From Candidatus Curtissbacteria bacterium RIFOXYA1_FULL_41_14 (lineage in GTDB: Bacteria; Patescibacteriota; Microgenomatia; Curtissbacterales; GWA2-41-24), in assembly GCA_001775095.1 (NCBI GenBank), contig MFCA01000028.1, positions 17,746-67,416 of the forward strand: a stretch of 49,671 bases of DNA, in the 5' to 3' direction. The number at the start of each line of letters is the position of its first letter. Positions within the stretch are counted from its first letter, which is position 1. This document shows positions 6,769 to 48,390 of the stretch, one piece after another. The notes under the pieces are model-generated. The model was given only the letters and a program-made list of their open reading frames with translations, did no database searches and was not told where the DNA came from. The translations under genes were made by a program, and so were the position numbers.

Positions 6769-6881
6769 AGTAATTAGGTCAATATCAGCATTCGCCTTCG
6801 GCGAATCTGATATATCAGTAAACTTCATTAGATTTTTAATATTAATTACAATAATTGAAGTTTAGCTGATATTAGGTTAAT

Positions 6882-26800: not shown

Positions 26801-29164
26801 ATGCCGATTGAGGAAGGATCACAAACAGCTGGCCAGATCGATGTACTTTCCGGTTTTCAACTAGTACTTCAGACGCTTGGATTTTTAGCCATAGCACTGG
26901 TGATTTTGGGTGTTTTGGCTTTTGTTGTTGGTTATATTTGGGTTATCTGGATGCGCAATAAAAATAGGGAAGAACGTTCACTTGAGTTTGTTTTACTTCA
27001 GGTTGCAGTACCCAGGGATAATGAAATAAAAATAGATGCCGCCGAGCAAATGTTTTCTTCTCTTTACTCTATTTATAAAAGTGGAACTCTTTCGTTTATT
27101 AAGCCTCAGGATCATCTCTCACTTGAGATTGTGGCTTTGCCTGAAGAAATTAAATTTTACATTTCCTGCCCCAAAAATTTACAGGATTTGGTTGAAAAAC
27201 AAATTCATGGTGCCTATCCTGGAGCTGATGTTAGAGAAGTTGAGGAATACAATATTTTTTCCGAGGAAGGCAAGCTTGCTTTTGCAGCTTTAAAACTCAA
27301 TAAAGCGAAATATTACCCGGTAAAAACTTATAAAGAATTAGGCACCGATCCTTTGAGTCAGATCACATCGGCAATGGCTAAAATGGAACCCGGAGAAGGT
27401 GCGGCTATTCAAATATTAGCGTCGCCTGCTGATGCCAGATGGCGGGCAGCCGGCAAGCGTTTTGTTACCAAGACGAAACAGGCAGAACTTTCGCCTAAGA
27501 CTGAAGAAAGGACCCCGCCTGATCCTAAAAAAATGGAGGCAGTTGAAAACAAGATTGCCAAAGTTGGTTTTAATGTGGTTGTTAGGATCGTTGTATCTGC
27601 TAAAACCGATGAAGATAGTAAGATTCATCTTGAAAACATTAAGTCGACCTTTGCTCAATTTGCCTCAGAATATAATGGATTTACCGGTGCCAATATTAGA
27701 TTTAAGAAACAATTTTTAGTTGACTTTGTCTATCGGTATTTACCACTTTTTGGCAACTTCGGTGTTTTAAATAGCGAGGAGCTGGCTACAATTTTTCACC
27801 TGCCTAATAAAAGCGTAGAGACTCCAGGGATTTTCTGGGTTAATGCCAAGCGGGCACCGGCTCCGGCTCAGATTCCTTCAACTGGACTTCATCTTGGCAA
27901 AAGCGTTTACCGGGGGACGACTAAGGAAGTTCATCTAAGTGAGGATGACCGCAGAAGACATGTCTACATAGTTGGAAAAACCGGAACCGGTAAGACCGAA
28001 CTTCTAAAGTATCTATTGATGCAGGATATCAAGGCAGGTCACGGTATTGCTTTTATTGATCCTCATGGTGATGCGGCCGAGGATATTCTAGCCCAAATTC
28101 CCCCTGACCGGGCGGAGGACGTTATTTACTTTAATCCCGCAGATACCGAGCGACCTCTGGGTATGAACATGTTAGAAGCCCAAACCGAGCAAGAAAAGCA
28201 TTTCGTAGCTACCTACATCGTCGGCTTAATGTACAAACTTTATGACCCTCACAAAACCGGAATTATCGGGCCACGATTTGAGCATGCAATCCGCAATGCA
28301 ATGCTGACGGTGATGTCAGAACCCGGCAATACTTTTGTCGAGGTGGTAAGGGTTCTTACCGATTCACGTTTTGTTCAGGAGCTTTTGCCAAAAGTTACTG
28401 ACCCGGTTGTTAGGCGCTACTGGACGGATCAAATTGCCCAAACAGCTGATTTTCATAAATCCGAGGTATTAGATTATATCGTTTCCAAATTCGGCCGGTT
28501 CGTAACTAACCGGATGATGAGAAATATAATTGGCCAGTCAAAAAGCGCTTTTAATCTTCGCGATATCATGGACAACAAAAAGATTTTGATCGTCAATCTT
28601 TCAAAAGGGAGAGTCGGCGAAGAAAATTCAAGCTTTTTAGGATTGGTTCTGGTTCCCAAAATTCTGGTTGCAGCAATGAGCCGGCAAGATGTTCCCGAGG
28701 AACAAAGGCCGGACTTTTTCCTGTATGTAGATGAGTTTCAAAACTTTGCGACAGAAACCTTTGCCGATATTTTGGCAGAGGCCAGAAAATTCAGACTGAA
28801 TTTGATTGTTGCTAATCAGTTCATTGGACAAATTGAAGAAGAAGTTAAAAATGCCGTTTTCGGCAACGTCGGAACACTAGTAAATTTCAGGGTGGGTGTG
28901 ACCGATGCTAATTACCTGCAGCACGAATTCACGCCGGTATTTAATGAGACCGATCTTATTAATATTGAGAGATTCCAGGCCTATGTCAAGACGATTGTTC
29001 GTAACGAACCGGTGCCGCCGTTTTCTTTGGATACGACCCGGGACTTGGCTAAAGTTGAGAGCGATCCTCGAATAGCCGAGATGATAAAGCAATTATCTAG
29101 GCTGAGATATGGCAGGGATGTAAACGTAGTCGACGCGGAGATTGTGCACCGGGCACGACTGTAA
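26801..29164 (+). CDS. membrane-anchored VirB4/TraD-like (T4SS coupling-type) ATPase
   Basis: N-terminal TM, DRRRHVYIVGKTGTGKT, IDPHGD, LYVDEFQNF, EARK, ANQ. Confidence 0.9.
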   Translation: MPIEEGSQTAGQIDVLSGFQLVLQTLGFLAIALVILGVLAFVVGYIWVIWMRNKNREERSLEFVLLQVAVPRDNEIKIDAAEQMFSSLYSIYKSGTLSFIKPQDHLSLEIVALPEEIKFYISCPKNLQDLVEKQIHGAYPGADVREVEEYNIFSEEGKLAFAALKLNKAKYYPVKTYKELGTDPLSQITSAMAKMEPGEGAAIQILASPADARWRAAGKRFVTKTKQAELSPKTEERTPPDPKKMEAVENKIAKVGFNVVVRIVVSAKTDEDSKIHLENIKSTFAQFASEYNGFTGANIRFKKQFLVDFVYRYLPLFGNFGVLNSEELATIFHLPNKSVETPGIFWVNAKRAPAPAQIPSTGLHLGKSVYRGTTKEVHLSEDDRRRHVYIVGKTGTGKTELLKYLLMQDIKAGHGIAFIDPHGDAAEDILAQIPPDRAEDVIYFNPADTERPLGMNMLEAQTEQEKHFVATYIVGLMYKLYDPHKTGIIGPRFEHAIRNAMLTVMSEPGNTFVEVVRVLTDSRFVQELLPKVTDPVVRRYWTDQIAQTADFHKSEVLDYIVSKFGRFVTNRMMRNIIGQSKSAFNLRDIMDNKKILIVNLSKGRVGEENSSFLGLVLVPKILVAAMSRQDVPEEQRPDFFLYVDEFQNFATETFADILAEARKFRLNLIVANQFIGQIEEEVKNAVFGNVGTLVNFRVGVTDANYLQHEFTPVFNETDLINIERFQAYVKTIVRNEPVPPFSLDTTRDLAKVESDPRIAEMIKQLSRLRYGRDVNVVDAEIVHRARL

Positions 29165-29197
29165 AATTCCCCAATTTGTGCTAAAATTTGAAAACTT

Positions 29198-29394
29198 GGA
29201 GCCGTAGCTCAACGGTAGAGCAGTACCCTTATATCTTGCTCATGGGCGCATAGCTCAATGGCAGAGCACCACTCTTATAAAGTGGCGGTTCTTGGTTCGA
29301 ATCCAAGTGCGCCCACAAGAACAAGATACATGAGCAAGATGTATTCTTGCGAATATAAGGTAAAGGTTTGATGGTTCGAATCCATCCGGCTCCA
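29198..29394 (+). tRNA. interrupted outer tRNA (Ile UAU if rejoined), ~124-nt insert in anticodon loop
   Basis: Acceptor GGAGCCG/CGGCTCC, D arm GCTC/GAGC, T arm GATGG-TTCGAAT-CCATC, TACC/GGTA stem, CTTATA..TATAA junctions. Confidence 0.7.
29244..29315 (+). tRNA. tRNA-Ile(UAU)
   Basis: Full cloverleaf GGGCGCA/TGCGCCC, CCACT-CT-TAT-AA-AGTGG, CTTGG-TTCGAAT-CCAAG; no encoded CCA. Confidence 0.93.
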
Positions 29395-29434
29395 CAAGTT
29401 CTCTGATGGAGCAATTCTGAATTAAAGTACTAAC

Positions 29435-29459
29435 GAAGGTTCGACTCCTTCCAGGCCCA
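29435..29459 (+). pseudogene. orphan tRNA 3' fragment
   Basis: GAAGG-TTCGACT-CCTTC-CAGGCCC-A. Confidence 0.7.
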
Positions 29460-29530
29460 CACTTACCCTTATATATCAGAGGAGCAACATTGAGACGAAG
29501 TCTCAAGTTGACCTGTTGATACAAAATGAA

Positions 29531-29560
29531 GTCCTTGGTCCGAATCCAAGTAGGCCCACC
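29531..29560 (+). pseudogene. orphan tRNA 3' fragment
   Basis: CTTGG-TCCGAAT-CCAAG-TAGGCCC-ACC. Confidence 0.7.
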
Positions 29561-29639
29561 TCACATTTCTCTCATATTTCAGAATCGTTACCTTTACATC
29601 CTTTTAGGAATTGTATAGACTTGTTTTATAGTTGGATTT

Positions 29640-29867
29640 ATGAGAATACTGGGCAATAGAGTCTTGTTTTTGACAGGAATTATTTGGGTAATCGGAGTTT
29701 TTATAATTGGTCTTGCCTTTGTGGCAAGTCATCCAGATTATTACAGGGAAGACGCCGTCCCCTCTGGAATACTGCTCTATAATATTTTTGCCTTTGCACT
29801 TTTCAGTATTCCGGGTTTTGTGCTTATTTACTTAGGGAAGTTGAAACCTAGAAGAGCTCCAAAATAA
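29640..29867 (+). CDS. small 2-TM protein
   Basis: 75 aa, two hydrophobic helices. Confidence 0.65.
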   Translation: MRILGNRVLFLTGIIWVIGVFIIGLAFVASHPDYYREDAVPSGILLYNIFAFALFSIPGFVLIYLGKLKPRRAPK

Positions 29868-29951
29868 ACCCATATCCGAAGTAAGATTAACCCATTTTTA
29901 TCCTCATTTTATTTCAGTTTCTTATCAAAATGCTAAAATGTATCTTTGGAT

Positions 29952-30791
29952 ATGAATTTTGGAATTGTTGTTGCTAAAGATAATCCTCCCGCAAAGAAAC
30001 TGGCTGGTGAGATTACAAAGTATGTTAAGTCAAAAGGTCATGAGGTACTGGATAAGGATAGACTAAAAGGATCGGATCTGTTTTTAACTCTTGGCGGTGA
30101 CGGAACACTTCTACACACGGCTTGCGAAAATATCCAGTTTCAAGTTCCTTTTGTCGGCATTAATCTCGGCAAGCTTGGGTTTTTAACGGCGACTGAAGCC
30201 AGTGATTGGAAAACTGCAATTGATAAACTAATTGACGGCAAGTATGTGGTTTCGGAAAGAATAACGCTGGATACGGAGATCGGTGCACACTCCCGGAGTG
30301 CGCTTGGTCGAAACTTTGCTCACTCCGGGAGTGAAGAAAAGGTCTTTCGTGCGTTAAATGAGGTTGTTGTTAAGGGATTGTATCGGGTGGTTGATTTACA
30401 GTTGAGTCTAAACGATCAGAAGTTTTTGAAAATTGTCGGAGATGGCGTAATTATTGCAACGCAGACCGGATCGACTGCATATTCTCTTTCGGCAGGAGGT
30501 CCAATTGTCGATCCGGATCTTGATTCTCTTCTAATAACACCAATAAATTCGACTGGTCTACCGATGCCCTCAGCAGTATTATCCAGTGAAAGTGTGGTTA
30601 ATATCGAGGTTTTAAGAGGAGATGATATTTCCTTAATTATTGACGGACAGGAGCATACGAAAATTAGTCAAAGTCAAAGTGTGAAGGTGAAAAGAGGGAA
30701 GCATAGGGTGAAGTTTGGTTACTTTGACGAGCACCACTTTTTAAAAGCCCTAAATGCGAAGTTTGGTCTTTCAGGAAGGTTTGATGGATAG
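29952..30791 (+). CDS. nadK: NAD kinase
   Basis: LGGDGTLL, GINLGKLGFL, ALNE, GDG...T.TGSTAYSLSAGGP. Confidence 0.94.
   Translation: MNFGIVVAKDNPPAKKLAGEITKYVKSKGHEVLDKDRLKGSDLFLTLGGDGTLLHTACENIQFQVPFVGINLGKLGFLTATEASDWKTAIDKLIDGKYVVSERITLDTEIGAHSRSALGRNFAHSGSEEKVFRALNEVVVKGLYRVVDLQLSLNDQKFLKIVGDGVIIATQTGSTAYSLSAGGPIVDPDLDSLLITPINSTGLPMPSAVLSSESVVNIEVLRGDDISLIIDGQEHTKISQSQSVKVKRGKHRVKFGYFDEHHFLKALNAKFGLSGRFDG
30288..30333 (+). repeat. palindromic element A in frame in nadK
   Basis: Encodes HSRSALGRNFAHSGS. Confidence 0.9.
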
Positions 30792-30800
30792 GAAGTTCCT

Positions 30801-31328
30801 CTAAAGTGATTTAAATTTATCACATATATTCTGTACTACCTTTTCAACTGAAGTATTCGTAGTATCAATGACTAGATCAAAAAACTTCGGATCGAGAAAA
30901 TTTTCATCGGCGTAAAGTTTACGGAATTTTAGATCGTGGGCGCGGTCGCGTCGTTTAACGTCTTCTCCTGTCTCTTTGTGCGTATGAGTGCGCTTTAAAG
31001 CTCTTTGAATTCGCACGCTTTCATCACAGGTCAATAATACTTTTAAGACATGAGGCATGTTACGGGTGAAGTAGCCGATATAAAGACTATCAATGATAAT
31101 TGGTTTATCGGACGCTGCTAAGCTAGTGAGTTCTTCGTCGATTTTTCTTTCAATATCATCCGGGACTTTTTCTTTTTCCGGCAGGGGAATATTGTGTTCG
31201 GACATGTATTTGCGGAAAAAATCCCCGGCCGATTTGTAGGGGATTTTAAGCTGCTCGCTGAGAACCTTGGCAGTGGTTGTAGAGCCGGAAGCAACCGGGC
31301 CGGAAATGGTGATGGAATGGTAGATCAT
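30801..31328 (-). CDS. cmk: cytidylate kinase-like (archaeal-type) nucleoside monophosphate kinase
   Basis: ITISGPVASGSTT, SAGDFFR, FDLVIDT. Confidence 0.82.
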   Translation of the reverse strand: MIYHSITISGPVASGSTTTAKVLSEQLKIPYKSAGDFFRKYMSEHNIPLPEKEKVPDDIERKIDEELTSLAASDKPIIIDSLYIGYFTRNMPHVLKVLLTCDESVRIQRALKRTHTHKETGEDVKRRDRAHDLKFRKLYADENFLDPKFFDLVIDTTNTSVEKVVQNICDKFKSL

Positions 31329-40042: not shown

Positions 40043-40345
40043 TTAGAGCTGTTCCAATTTCACTTTTTCCTCGCCCTTGGGAGGCTGGATGAGAGAGAGG
40101 TAGCGTTCGGTGGTCGAAAGTCTCTTGTGGCCGGCGATTTTGGAAATTAGAACAAGCGATGCACCGGACGAAAGATGATGGGCAACCCAAGTGTGGCGAA
40201 GATCATTAACTTTGGCGCCCGAGATCCCTGCCCTTTTGTAGTAGCGGTCAATAGCAGTTCTGATATTTCTGACGAGAAGTGGTCTGCCGGTTTTGGTGAC
40301 GAAGAGGGTTTTATTGGTAGTTTTTGTGCGTTCTTCTAAATATCT
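40043..40345 (-). pseudogene. duplicate of the last 100 codons of the Xer-like recombinase
   Basis: Protein identical to the C-terminus of 43008-43883; only synonymous differences. Confidence 0.92.
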
Positions 40346-42932: not shown

Positions 42933-42938
42933 TCTAAA

Positions 42939-42986
42939 TTAGAGTTGTTCTAATTTCACTTTTTCTTCCCTTCGACTTCGCTCAGG
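42939..42986 (-). repeat. B hairpin plus recoded xer tail EEKVKLEQL-stop
   Basis: Minus strand CCTGAGCGAAGTCGAAGG-GAAGAAAAAGTGAAATTAGAACAACTCTAA. Confidence 0.88.
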
Positions 42987-43007: not shown

Positions 43008-43883
43008 TTAAAGTTGCTCGAGCTTAACTTTTTCCTCGCCTTTTGGGGGTTGGATGAGAGAGAGGTAGCGTTCGGTGGTCGAAAGTCTCTTGTGGCCGGC
43101 GATTTTGGAAATTAGAACAAGCGATGCACCGGACGAAAGATGATGGGCAACCCAAGTGTGGCGAAGATCATTAACTTTGGCGCCCGAAATCCCTGCCCTT
43201 TTATAGTAGCGGTCAATAGCAGTTCTGATATTTCTGACTAAAAGTGGTCTTCCGGTTTTGGTAACAAAGAGAGTTTTATTGGTAGTTTTTGTCCGTTCCT
43301 CCAGATACCTTTTGAGTACAGCTTCGGCTGCTTTATTTAAAGGGACTGTCCGCTCAGGCCTATTTTCCATAGGTCTAATGTAAAGATGACCCTCCTTACC
43401 GTCTTCTCCTAAAAAGACATCATCAGTTCTTAAATTGGCCAATTCCCCAATTCTGATACCTGTCTGAAGGAGTACCTCGATAATAGCAGCAATTCTAGCA
43501 TCATCTCTGGCGGCATCACGCAGTGCCCTGTATTCAGTGGGGGAAAGAATTCTTGGAGGTTTTGCCTCAAATTTTGGATGGTCAACTAAACTTGCCGGGT
43601 CGTCGGTTAGATACTCCTGGACTTTTAAATATCTAAAAAATGTTTTGGTGGAATTTAATTTTCGCGAAATTGATTTTAGGGTGTAGCCGCTATTTTGCAT
43701 TTTGGCCAAAAAGCCTTTAATGTCATCTGAAGTGACCTCATGGACGTGAGCTTTTGATATCTCTTGTAAGAATGCTATCAGCTGCTCGATATCTTTACCG
43801 TATGCTAAGATGGTAGCGGAGGCTCGCTTTCGGCCTTTTAGGTGTTCAATAAACTCTTTATGAGCTTCGTCCAATTTTTTCAT
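43008..43883 (-). CDS. XerC/XerD-like tyrosine recombinase
   Basis: N-terminal SAM-like domain, TGIRIGEL, NDLRHT, AGH..LSTTERY. Confidence 0.92.
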   Translation of the reverse strand: MKKLDEAHKEFIEHLKGRKRASATILAYGKDIEQLIAFLQEISKAHVHEVTSDDIKGFLAKMQNSGYTLKSISRKLNSTKTFFRYLKVQEYLTDDPASLVDHPKFEAKPPRILSPTEYRALRDAARDDARIAAIIEVLLQTGIRIGELANLRTDDVFLGEDGKEGHLYIRPMENRPERTVPLNKAAEAVLKRYLEERTKTTNKTLFVTKTGRPLLVRNIRTAIDRYYKRAGISGAKVNDLRHTWVAHHLSSGASLVLISKIAGHKRLSTTERYLSLIQPPKGEEKVKLEQL

Positions 43884-44102
43884 ATCCTAGGCATAATTTG
43901 TGCCGAGTCAAACTCGGCTATCGGGTCAGACTTGGTGCAGAATAGCAGGCTGACCCCGATTAATCTTGCTGTTCGCCTTTAGGTTCTATTCGAACATGGT
44001 TCACAGTGCGATTTTACGGGGCAGGCAACTTAAAAAGTTAAGGCAAGTATAATCCTATGCTATGGGTCTTGTCAAGCCCGTCAGGATAATACTGCAGTTG
44101 AT

Positions 44103-44692: not shown

Positions 44693-44767
44693 GGCAGGGT
44701 AGCTCAATGGCAGAGCGAGAGAATCATAACCTCTAGGTTGTGGGTTCGATCCCCACCCCTGCCACCA
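44693..44767 (+). tRNA. tRNA-Met(CAU), probably elongator
   Basis: GGCAGGG/CCCTGCC, AATCATAA loop region, encoded CCA. Confidence 0.88.
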
Positions 44768-44839
44768 GGTTGCAGGTCTTCGACTCTGAGGGAGAGCTTT
44801 CAGGCTTAGACTCGATGAGTTCAATCCCTGCCGCAGCCA
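44767..44839 (+). pseudogene. orphan tRNA 3' half with 43-nt palindromic insert in the T arm
   Basis: AGGTT-GCAGG-[insert]-TTCAATC-CCTGC-CGCAGCC-A. Confidence 0.72.
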
Positions 44840-48044: not shown

Positions 48045-48390
48045 TTGTAAAGCAGTGCTCTTTTGAGGTGGTTAGAAATTTTTATTAGCAGATGGGGCAG
48101 AAATCTGCTAATATTAGAATAATATATCAGAGGAGCGCTATTGACAGGGCGAAGCCTGTCAAAGCGAACTGCTGATATTTTTTTTAATAATGATTTTAAA
48201 CTTAAAAACTACAACCATTTGGCCTCCGGCTCAGAGAGCTTTCTGGCTCGGAGAGTTTTATCACTTTACTCGCTAAATAGCGGGTTTTATGGTTCCTTCT
48301 TCGCATAAAGCTTCGAAGGACAAGGAGTTTTTAAGTTTTAATTAAAAACTAGCCAAATACGAAACTCGCTTAAGGTAGGCGAGTTTTTTT
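48045..48390 (+). ncRNA. candidate structured ncRNA or leader ending in an intrinsic terminator
   Basis: TTGACT-N18-TACAAT upstream, multiple stems, AAACTCGCTT/AGGCGAGTTT plus T run. Confidence 0.4.

Follow-up and report, generated by a model that had tools for sequence, protein, structure and literature searches.

The Nested tRNA-Ile(UAU) Locus

The window analysed here, that is, the whole stretch of 49,671 nucleotides taken from contig MFCA01000028.1 of Candidatus Curtissbacteria bacterium RIFOXYA1_FULL_41_14, holds between positions 29198 and 29394 an intact tRNA-Ile(UAU) gene lying within the anticodon loop of a second tRNA-Ile(UAU) gene, whose two halves flank it. The genome of the window is designated G000, and G and L numbers denote the other genomes and loci compared. 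Across the nest, the order is the outer 5' half, TCTTGCTCAT, the inner tRNA, a 37-nt stretch, and then the outer 3' half, which starts with TATAAGG. The features of the nest and of its putative promoter are the following:

29177-29187, + strand: TGTGCTAAAAT, an extended -10-like motif 10 nt 5' of the outer 5' half, conserved among relatives
29198-29233, + strand: outer tRNA-Ile(UAU) 5' half (acceptor 5' strand, D arm, anticodon stem 5' strand, loop CTTATA); nhmmer profile positions 2-36, E 4.5e-6
29230-29233, + strand: left TATA junction repeat, anticodon-loop positions 34-37; sequence and rejoining test
29230-29243, + strand: left inverted repeat TATATCTTGCTCAT, whose first 4 bases are the junction TATA; 13/14 matches to 29330-29343
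29244-29316, + strand: inner intact tRNA-Ile(UAU), the sole tRNA-Ile(UAU) called in the genome and presumed functional AUA decoder; ARAGORN, Rfam 74.3 bits
29322-29328, + strand: CAAGATA internal repeat, which can pair alternatively with the left arm (hairpin 1 of the "empty" module); RNA minimum-energy fold
29330-29343, + strand: right inverted repeat ATGAGCAAGATGTA; inverted-repeat scoring and DNA fold
29342-29355, + strand: small hairpin TATTC-TTGC-GAATA, ending within the right junction; DNA fold
29354-29357, + strand: right TATA junction repeat; sequence and rejoining test
29354-29394, + strand: outer tRNA-Ile(UAU) 3' half (loop TATAA, anticodon stem 3' strand, variable region, T arm, acceptor 3' strand); nhmmer profile positions 33-73, E 2.6e-5

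The half-tRNA nhmmer profile used for these assignments was built from 34 tRNA-Ile(UAU) genes. As a first-pass annotation of this DNA had proposed, the outer halves make up one tRNA, identified here as a tRNA-Ile(UAU), with 7/7 pairs in the acceptor stem, 4/4 in the D stem, and 5/5 in the T stem; read from the sequence, its anticodon stem has a single G-A mismatch at 27-43, and its variable region is apparently one base over the usual length. The insert was also deleted in silico, and 238 junction combinations were run through ARAGORN. All junctions equal to the removal of 124 nt at the repeated TATA (29230-29233 / 29354-29357) restored the loop CTTATAA and were reported as a tRNA-Ile(tat) of 74 nt, as expected from rejoining at the duplicated TATA. 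In its uninterrupted form, the outer gene gives an ARAGORN cloverleaf that includes the G-A mismatch, and its sequence shares 88% identity with the tRNA that is functional in G034. In its interrupted form, it was reported neither by ARAGORN in default mode or in intron mode (introns of 0-400 nt) nor by Rfam, and the inner tRNA alone was called. The intron-mode check that had been suggested therefore found the inner tRNA, but not an outer gene with an intron.

The insert comprises 124 non-coding nt with TATA at both edges, 73 nt of which are the inner tRNA. The intactness of this tRNA, called by ARAGORN and matched by the Rfam tRNA model, and its distinctness from the outer gene (77% identity) both agreed with the first-pass annotation. 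The 14-bp clamp described there, ATATCTTGCTCATG / CATGAGCAAGATGT, consists of 13 Watson-Crick pairs and one T-G, and the flanking inverted repeat reached 13/14 matches compared with a maximum of 8 in 30 shuffles. A further 10 nt, TTCTTGCGAA, separate the right inverted repeat from the junction, and the left arm is also present in L002-L006. Terminal inverted repeats (TATATCTTGCTCAT / ATGAGCAAGATGTA, 13/14) together with TATA at both junctions are a hallmark of miniature inverted-repeat transposable elements (MITEs). The small TATTC-TTGC-GAATA hairpin lies at 29342-29355 as had been noted, and its middle pair switches jointly between T-A and A-T from copy to copy (A/T in 33, T/A in 7, and unpaired in 6 of 46 contexts, which are fuzzy matches, some of them off-register).

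The hairpin said to compete with the clamp was likewise recovered, with a one-base bulge, and the same hairpin with a loop of 3-5 nt occurs in the tRNA-free, or empty, modules of L024, L025, and L027-L029 that are described below; in the nested form, the inner tRNA occupies the loop of this first hairpin of the module. The predicted RNA fold of the 197 nt has a free energy of -72.2 kcal/mol (z -5.3 relative to shuffled sequences), and its minimum uses the alternative pairing and not the clamp. In the predicted DNA fold of 137 nt (-28.8 kcal/mol, z -5.9 relative to shuffled sequences), the clamp stacks on the inner acceptor stem.

The arrangement is not an assembly artefact, since Logan contigs of the runs X1, X9, and X19 each cover 28900-29800 with 0 differences. 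X1 and X9 may represent the source sample, and the stretch occurs in 20 runs from 11 studies, which are groundwater and soil metagenomes with no RNA run listed among them. The genome has 1.15 Mb, 40% G+C, and a completeness of 99.66%. ARAGORN called 46 tRNAs in it, including one Ile(tat), one Ile(gat), and two Met(cat), and no TilS was found in the genome. In 469 long open frames, 3818 of 216,420 codons are ATA, corresponding to 17.6 per 1000. Because there is one Ile(tat) gene and no TilS was found, the inner tRNA is presumed to be the sole visible AUA decoder of the organism. As a separate observation, no transfer-messenger RNA appeared among the 46 ARAGORN calls, with its detection switched on, in this genome rated as 99.66% complete.

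The nest is preceded by a gene for a 787-aa VirD4/TrwB-like coupling protein (26801-29164), and a NAD kinase gene follows the layered locus. A gene of 775-780 aa also lies upstream of tRNA-Ile(UAU) in G046 and G052, which belong to other families, and the neighbourhood of this tRNA therefore seems old. The motif TGnTAAAAT was observed before the 5' end of the outermost tRNA-Ile in L002, L003, L004, L007, L010, L016, and L019. It was not flagged by a simple sigma-70 consensus scan because it has no -35 hexamer. In G000, TGTGCTAAAAT is likely the promoter of the whole nested unit.

Recurrence of Nests among Related Genomes

A DNA search in which the 197-nt nest served as query recovered the whole nest or most of it in 6 of 61 related genomes: G026 (query positions 1-197, 88% identity), G007 (5-187, 85%), G018 (1-164, at a contig end, 86%), G004 (19-165, 82%), G015 (36-187, 79%), and G030 (47-170, 78%). 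The half-tRNA profile was applied to the 31 genomes of a taxonomically drawn sample in which a tRNA-Ile(UAU) locus was examined. Halves flanked the gene on both sides in 10 of these (G000, G026, G007, G004, G015, G032, G006, G052, G028, and G001) and probably did so in three others with a contig end or a weak half (G018, G030, and G034); three had the 5' half only (G019, G013, and G046), and the remaining 15 had no flanking halves. Across the phylum, a strict pattern in which a 5' half closely precedes a full gene was found in 3 of 401 genomes, namely G000 and two of other classes, both of which proved to be real nests. One of them, G409, contains three layers, each with its own inverted repeat of 7-8 bp, in which the inner units are bounded by TGGTGACT/GCCACCA and then by TTGCAAGT/CTTGCAA; the other, G436, has a nest and an additional 3' half.

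Profile position 36 is the last of the 5' part and position 33 the first of the 3' part in most nests, which places a 4-bp TATA at both junctions; in some, only TA is common to both. The target lies in the anticodon loop and is the palindrome TTATAA. By eye, all nested inner tRNAs are flanked by an inverted repeat of 7-15 bp that often abuts the tRNA ends, and at least six unrelated inverted-repeat sequences occur among the nests. An ungapped inverted-repeat scoring gave 10-14 matches in L001-L006, L010, L015, L020, L035, and L039, with shuffle maxima of 8-11, and at most 9 in un-nested loci. The scores were lower in L014 (8), L034 (9), L052 (7), L030 and L009 (6 each) because gaps interrupt the repeats there or the scanned flank does not reach them. 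A short hairpin comes after the right arm, and its stem base runs into the junction.

A compact architecture of 120-130 nt is found in G000, G026, G007, G018, and G004, with no long form, while G015 and G030 have the same right arm with more hairpin repeats inserted on the left. The genus g16 includes three species (G026, G015, and G030) with three configurations and two different functional inner tRNAs, and in G015 a G026-type outer 3' half is found further out, carrying a T-loop insert. Judged by recombinase identity (92%), no relative is closer than G003, whose tRNA is un-nested and belongs to the type found as the outer gene of G007. L034 and L081 have outer and inner 3' halves of identical sequence.

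A side observation concerns L012 (G058), where an apparently un-nested tRNA-Ile(UAU) lies 52 nt after the recombinase gene, around 1500-1610. Decayed pieces of the G000-type cassette, TATACTTGCAATT ... GATACATGAGCC, flank this tRNA, and some loci that look simple may therefore be old nests whose outer halves have vanished.

The Cassette Structure outside tRNA Genes

The palindromic vehicle that carries the tRNA is not restricted to nests. Its G000-type right-arm motif was detected in 15 of 401 genomes of the class, with 0 matches for the reversed control. Species-representative genomes under the titles Curtiss-, Davies-, and Woykebacteria contain it in 19 stretches, including five copies in one Woykebacteria metagenome-assembled genome (MAG), which places the organism among the Microgenomates of the Patescibacteria. 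Many copies are empty modules of ~50 nt lying between TATA or TA in non-tRNA intergenic DNA. The sites include a position just 5' of the ribosome-binding site of a dnaK-like gene and another directly after the gene for a second Xer-like recombinase. Empty modules were also found in tandem arrays, some of them with ~75 nt of non-tRNA cargo. The Rfam search of six empty-module loci retrieved no module family, only a tRNA and a sub-threshold S15 leader, and the vehicle motif had 0 matches in viral contigs; a viral match to the anticodon-arm pattern was discarded as an ordinary phage tRNA array with no nest. With only 15 of 401 genomes of the class containing it, the vehicle was rejected as a chromosome dimer-resolution site.

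Some details of these modules were noted in passing. The Woykebacteria-type loci L066, L067, L068, L075, L077, and L078 hold empty modules in tandem, with the ~75-nt cargo between the first hairpin and the right arm, and one stem among these modules has G-T in place of A-T or G-C. Several of the loci L061, L062, L065, L066, L072, and L074, which carry this module specific to the candidate phyla radiation (CPR), come from genome records with the title "uncultured Gammaproteobacteria" or "Nanoarchaeia archaeon"; judging by what the records contain, such as the match of L061 to the G018 nest, these titles seem to be wrong.

G000 also harbors a hairpin repeat family with the ends TATATCAG...CTGATATA, present in ~40 copies, often in tandem, and its tandem junction CTGATATATCAG occurs 15 times compared with 0.1 expected. 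No matching transposase was found for this family. The cassette ends share hexamers with it, as seen for TATATC...GATATA in L005 and GATGTA in G000, and the ends of the G052 cassette are TATAGCAG...CTGATATA. Given these shared end hexamers, the cassettes look like part of a wider group of palindromic elements with TA-rich targets. The repeat family itself, with the ends (T/A)ATATCAG...CTGATAT(A/T), falls into several subfamilies of 30-90 nt, one of which, of 63 nt, has at least six near-identical copies; in the window, copies lie at 6781-6814, 48123-48179, and 29472-29521.

Older Layers Downstream of the Nest

The outer 3' half is followed in the window by further remnants:

29395-29422, + strand: spacer with an AATTC-T-GAATT palindrome ending at a TA junction; by eye
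29423-29460, + strand: 3' part displaced from an older tRNA-Ile, with the acceptor strand CAGGCCC; nhmmer profile positions 47-73, E 2.9e-3
29460-29471, + strand: CACTTACCCTTA, a 12-nt remnant of the right inverted repeat of an older cassette; comparison with L052, by eye
29472-29521, + strand: one copy of the TATATCAG...CTGATA palindromic repeat family, inserted at TATA; 84-90% identity to 4 other places in G000
29527-29559, + strand: another displaced 3' part of a tRNA-Ile, comprising the T arm and the acceptor strand TAGGCCC and forming the oldest layer; nhmmer profile positions 41-73, E 9.0e-5

By eye, the spacer is similar to the hairpins found ahead of displaced 3' halves in L014 and L020. 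The CAGGCCC-type tRNA serves as the functional inner tRNA of G001 and stands un-nested in G025 and G027 (compared with L052, L019, and L016), and the G001 cassette with which CACTTACCCTTA was compared reads TAAGTGGCAAGTGC-tRNA-ACTTGCCCTTA. Since further displaced 3' parts and a cassette remnant follow the outer 3' half, the stretch from the promoter to the NAD kinase gene preserves a record of at least three tRNA-Ile(UAU) generations.

Elsewhere in the window, a tRNA 3' relic whose T arm is split by ~45 nt lies at 44768-44839, directly 3' of a tRNA-Met (44693-44767). Similar T-loop interruptions were seen in the relic 3' halves of L006, L009, and L014.

Proposed Gene Replacement by an Invader Carrying Its Own tRNA

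The first-pass annotation had left two readings side by side, an intron-like RNA yielding two tRNAs and an integration scar in which the invader brought its own replacement tRNA. The comparative evidence favors the latter and speaks against the former. The architecture is repeated in different resident tRNAs, layers and displaced halves pile up, the functional inner tRNA differs between congeneric species, and the vehicle occurs elsewhere with no tRNA, its ends matching those of the ~40-copy repeat family. In addition, one contig of the DNA run X20 joins 29229 to 29354 and thereby skips exactly the 124 nt (depth 4.2, with 32 letters on the shorter side), so that an outer-type tRNA without interruption is present as DNA in the community. 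Because the layering of nests recurs across relatives, the locus is most likely the record of mobile DNA that broke an essential gene and brought the replacement along, and we put at about 0.72 the probability that it represents a layered DNA record of such gene replacement and not a spliced gene, an assessment made from sequence comparison.

According to this reading, a non-coding cassette of 124 bp would have interrupted a resident tRNA-Ile(UAU) at the TATA within the anticodon loop (CTTATAA). The cassette is composed of a 14-bp terminal inverted repeat, a full tRNA-Ile(UAU) between the arms, and a short hairpin at the right end. As the resident tRNA would have been the sole AUA decoder, such a destructive insertion could be survived only with a working copy aboard. 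The inner tRNA would then have taken over, and the outer halves would have become a pseudogene. Transcription most likely still starts from the old promoter, 10 nt 5' of the outer 5' half, and the inner tRNA would be released by the ordinary end-processing enzymes, while the clamp probably keeps it folding alone, apart from the similar outer halves. The displaced 3' parts found downstream would stem from two earlier layers, one of them with an inserted copy of the abundant palindromic repeat.

The fate of the outer halves bears directly on this proposal. Their decay in relatives, which had been named as the sign of a pseudogene scar, was observed in about half of the nests, but not in seven whose outer acceptor stems remain paired at 7/7 (L001, L002, L003, L014, L035, L039, and L052). 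Chimeric outer halves were found in L034 (acceptor stem 4/7) and L020 (5/7), and truncated or interrupted ones in L005, L006, L009, L030, and L049.

Several observations weigh against the replacement of the resident gene by a mobile cassette. The G000 and G026 nests look orthologous, with the same promoter and the NAD kinase gene downstream, and their outer halves differ at 13/77 positions and their inner tRNAs at 7/73. Among the outer differences, two paired changes preserve the pairing of the acceptor (4:69) and anticodon (28:42) stems, and the T loops of the inner and outer copies change jointly within each of the two genomes. On these comparisons, the outer halves of G000 and G026 appear more ordered than those of a free-running pseudogene should be; gene conversion by the inner copy could account for this order, as could insertions made separately into different alleles of the resident gene, or selection if the cassette is reversible. 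The insert-less contig of run X20 may come from another organism. The vehicle is present as a single copy in G000, where family searches detected none of the transposase families DDE_3, DDE_Tnp_1, and IS110, and where both Y1 transposase genes are flanked by hairpin repeat types other than the cassette ends. The inverted repeats of G052 and G006 are unique in their genomes and are therefore not ordinary multi-copy transposon ends, an identity for which the cassette repeats had been considered and which was rejected on the finding that these arms occur only at the nest.

Candidate Movers of the Cassette

The cassette would be mobile as a unit, moving in a folded single-stranded or hairpin form. 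The mover may be a hairpin-recognising recombinase or a Y1 (HUH) enzyme. The candidates in G000 are two RAYT-like Y1 proteins of 226 aa, whose genes lie outside the window (C29:210863-211543 and C13:23747-24427), and two tyrosine recombinases of the Xer-like type, in addition to which the genome has a recombinase fragment. The Y1 transposases were rejected as movers of the cassettes, each being flanked by its own repeats. Regarding these repeats, the gene at C29:210863-211543 is flanked by CACCCCTGGGGTG hairpins, CACCCCTGGGGTG occurs 27 times in the genome, and the CACCCCTGGGGTG/Y1 pair constitutes a REP-like system apart from the tRNA cassettes (REP, repetitive extragenic palindrome).

The nearest tyrosine recombinase gene, at 43008-43886, lies 13.7 kb from the nest and encodes 292 aa. 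Of 61 genomes, 57 have a single copy of it, and its identity between genomes tracks their taxonomy, which indicates a vertically inherited host gene and not cargo. Its distance from tRNA-Ile(UAU) is 10-14 kb in this family, but only 50-500 nt in several others. The protein scored below the curated cut-offs for XerC, XerD, and the integron integrase (59 bits for the NCBIfam integron integrase compared with a cut-off of 265), and no attC core sequence was seen at the cassette. The ends conserved in structure and variable in sequence, together with the hairpin spanning the junction, bear a resemblance to the sites that recombinases read as folded single strands.

The 3' end of this recombinase gene deserves separate mention, as it is present three times in the window (43008-43310, a 303-bp copy at 40043-40345 with 92% identity, and a 33-bp copy at 42936-42968). 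These copies surround a 2.7-kb insert with three ORFs, which, like one neighbouring ORF, matched no Pfam family. C-terminal relics of the recombinase also lie near the tRNA-Ile clusters of G052 and G032, and the 3' end of the gene appears as a second hotspot at which a 3' end is replaced upon insertion.

A more ambitious proposal, tentative and one that we would not back at even odds, is that hairpin-ended "replacement cassettes" of ~90-130 bp propagate themselves across Patescibacteria with an essential single-copy tRNA-Ile(UAU), homing into the TTATAA of the resident gene and making themselves indispensable by destroying it. Homing would perhaps involve folded single strands handled by the Xer-like recombinase that is encoded beside this tRNA in most families of the class, and serial invasions would leave the Matryoshka layers and drive a fast turnover of the AUA decoder between close species. 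If true, this would amount to a gene-drive-like addiction based on a tRNA instead of a toxin.

Alternative Explanations

The nest could instead be what is left of a large integrative element. Such a phage or island, with an integrase and a tRNA-Ile of its own, would have crossed over in the anticodon loop, and its body would later have been deleted down to 124 nt. We regard this as unlikely. The conserved Xer-like recombinase close to tRNA-Ile(UAU) in several other families (50-500 nt, and 10-14 kb here), the displaced 3' halves that pile up downstream as at classical att sites, and the triplicated recombinase 3' end around the 2.7-kb insert would all suit such an origin, as would the identity of outer and inner 3' halves in L034 and L081, where the direct repeat of a tRNA 3' portion typical of islands is found. 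In G000, however, only TATA is repeated, so that the junction identity is just 4 bp, and the 124-nt non-coding insert holds no integrase gene. Furthermore, the compact form of 120-130 nt occurs with no long form in five genomes (G000, G026, G007, G018, and G004), the layers of G409 have flanks of only 7-8 bp, and the recombinase behaves as a host gene, single copy in 57/61 genomes and following taxonomy.

A reversible cassette, excised precisely and re-inserted at the TATA repeats, would allow filled and empty alleles to coexist, with the outer tRNA working in the cells that lack the cassette. The X20 contig without exactly the 124 nt, the intact outer tRNA of G000 and several relatives, and the paired changes that preserve the outer stems between G000 and G026 are what this explanation predicts. 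Yet the single low-depth contig, with its 32 letters on one side, is maybe derived from the tRNA of another organism, the empty allele is absent from X1, X9, and X19, and many nests have decayed outer halves, all of which make reversibility quite improbable.

A true intron or split tRNA was the alternative at the RNA level. RNase P and a 3' nuclease would free the inner tRNA, the clamp would hold the outer halves, and another activity would trim and ligate them, giving two tRNA-Ile(UAU) from a single transcript. The position of the insert fits the canonical 37/38 intron site, the clamp would keep the halves together after release of the inner tRNA according to the predicted folds, and both the 7/7 outer acceptor stems of seven nests and the paired outer-stem changes between G000 and G026 would follow from a functional outer tRNA. 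Against it, the tRNA splicing endonuclease EndA (PF01974) had 0 matches in G000, the control being positive in 4 archaeal genomes, and the RtcB ligase (PF01139) had 0 matches in G000, the control being positive in 10 of 14 genomes, other ligase families not having been searched. No group I intron, ribozyme, or other Rfam family besides tRNA was detected at E up to 1 in 28000-31000, and the 124-nt insert is shorter than the ~200 nt or more of group I introns. No bulge-helix-bulge was present in the predicted RNA and DNA folds, in which the boundaries lie in a continuous helix of CCUUAUAU with AUAUAAGG and not between two 3-nt bulges. In addition, the outer halves are decayed or chimeric in about half of the nests, congeneric species have different functional inner tRNAs, the same vehicle occurs in non-tRNA DNA, the X20 contig shows an outer-type tRNA lacking the 124 nt at the DNA level, and a second tRNA with the same anticodon offers no obvious gain; taken together, splicing is very improbable. 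Finally, chance resemblance or an assembly chimera has a practically negligible probability, given the E-values of both halves (4.5e-6 and 2.6e-5), the ARAGORN call of the rejoined gene, the contigs of three runs spanning the region with 0 differences, and the conservation of the arrangement in other genomes.

Significance and Comparison with Known Systems

Bacterial tRNA genes are regarded as structurally uniform, and here nested tRNA genes, up to three deep, recur across a phylum. If the layered locus indeed records replacement by a cassette, it would reveal a mobile element whose cargo is the gene that it destroys, and it would explain how the identity of the sole AUA decoder changes between congeneric species. 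For annotators of small genomes, the surroundings of tRNA-Ile(UAU) become worth checking for tRNA halves, and the cassettes would offer a compact natural system for hairpin-guided DNA insertion, with ~100 bp, ends defined by structure, and a 6-bp palindromic target. A caution also follows, as intron-mode tRNA finders overlook the outer gene and the RNA-level reading is attractive yet unsupported.

Genomic islands and prophages use tyrosine integrases that insert into tRNA genes, with the crossover in the anticodon loop. The cassette locus resembles them in its anticodon-loop target, the preservation of tRNA function by the incoming DNA, the displaced 3' parts accumulating downstream, and the presence of a tyrosine recombinase gene nearby in many relatives. 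In contrast to them, the cassette carries a whole tRNA gene and not a 3' portion, has 124 nt and no integrase, shares only 4 bp at its junctions, and clamps its tRNA by an inverted repeat, and the nearby recombinase belongs to the host.

REP/REPIN and MITEs are miniature inverted-repeat or palindromic elements of bacteria. Like them, the cassette is short and non-coding, with terminal inverted repeats, an AT-rich target (TA or TATA), and short junction repeats; it is multi-copy in some genomes, such as the Woykebacteria MAG with 5 copies, and G000 has the ~40-copy family with related ends. Unlike them, its cargo is an essential tRNA gene sited in the gene that it replaces, its inverted repeats vary by cassette and are unique in their genomes (G052 and G006), and no matching transposase (DDE_3, DDE_Tnp_1, or IS110) was found in G000.

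Integron attC sites and Xer-dependent integrating elements employ folded single-stranded sites. The structure-conserved and sequence-variable ends, the hairpin base spanning the junction, the single-gene cargo, and the arrays beside a conserved tyrosine recombinase gene are all reminiscent of these systems. The recombinase, however, lies far under the cut-offs for the integron integrase and XerC/XerD, and the cassette lacks attC-type cores, so the likeness concerns a possible mode and not membership.

Among interrupted tRNA genes, archaeal tRNA introns, split tRNAs, and transposing tRNA introns, as described in the available portions of two sources (PMC4033280, PMC10714607), have in common with the nest an anticodon-loop insert compatible with position 37/38, complementary flanks that could hold the halves, and a behaviour as mobile DNA. 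The nest differs in its bacterial host, the lack of EndA/RtcB matches and of a bulge-helix-bulge, and in an insert that is itself a full tRNA gene. Group I introns also interrupt the anticodon loop of bacterial tRNA genes (PMC4033280, same portion), but the cassette has no catalytic core, with 73 of its 124 nt being tRNA, and no Rfam intron match. In the available portion of that 2014 review, group I and II introns are presented as the sole significant way in which bacterial tRNA genes vary in structure, and "nested" does not appear there as a word (PMC4033280). In the portions of the full-text literature covered, subscription journals being outside this scope, nothing was found that describes nesting of tRNA genes in bacteria or palindromic cassettes with a tRNA as cargo.

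The nearest known kind is mobile DNA that inserts into a tRNA gene and makes the gene whole again. What sets the cassette apart from that kind is the whole-tRNA cargo, an insert of ~100 bp without an integrase, the 4-bp junction repeats, the inverted-repeat clamps, and the serial nesting of one tRNA gene within another.

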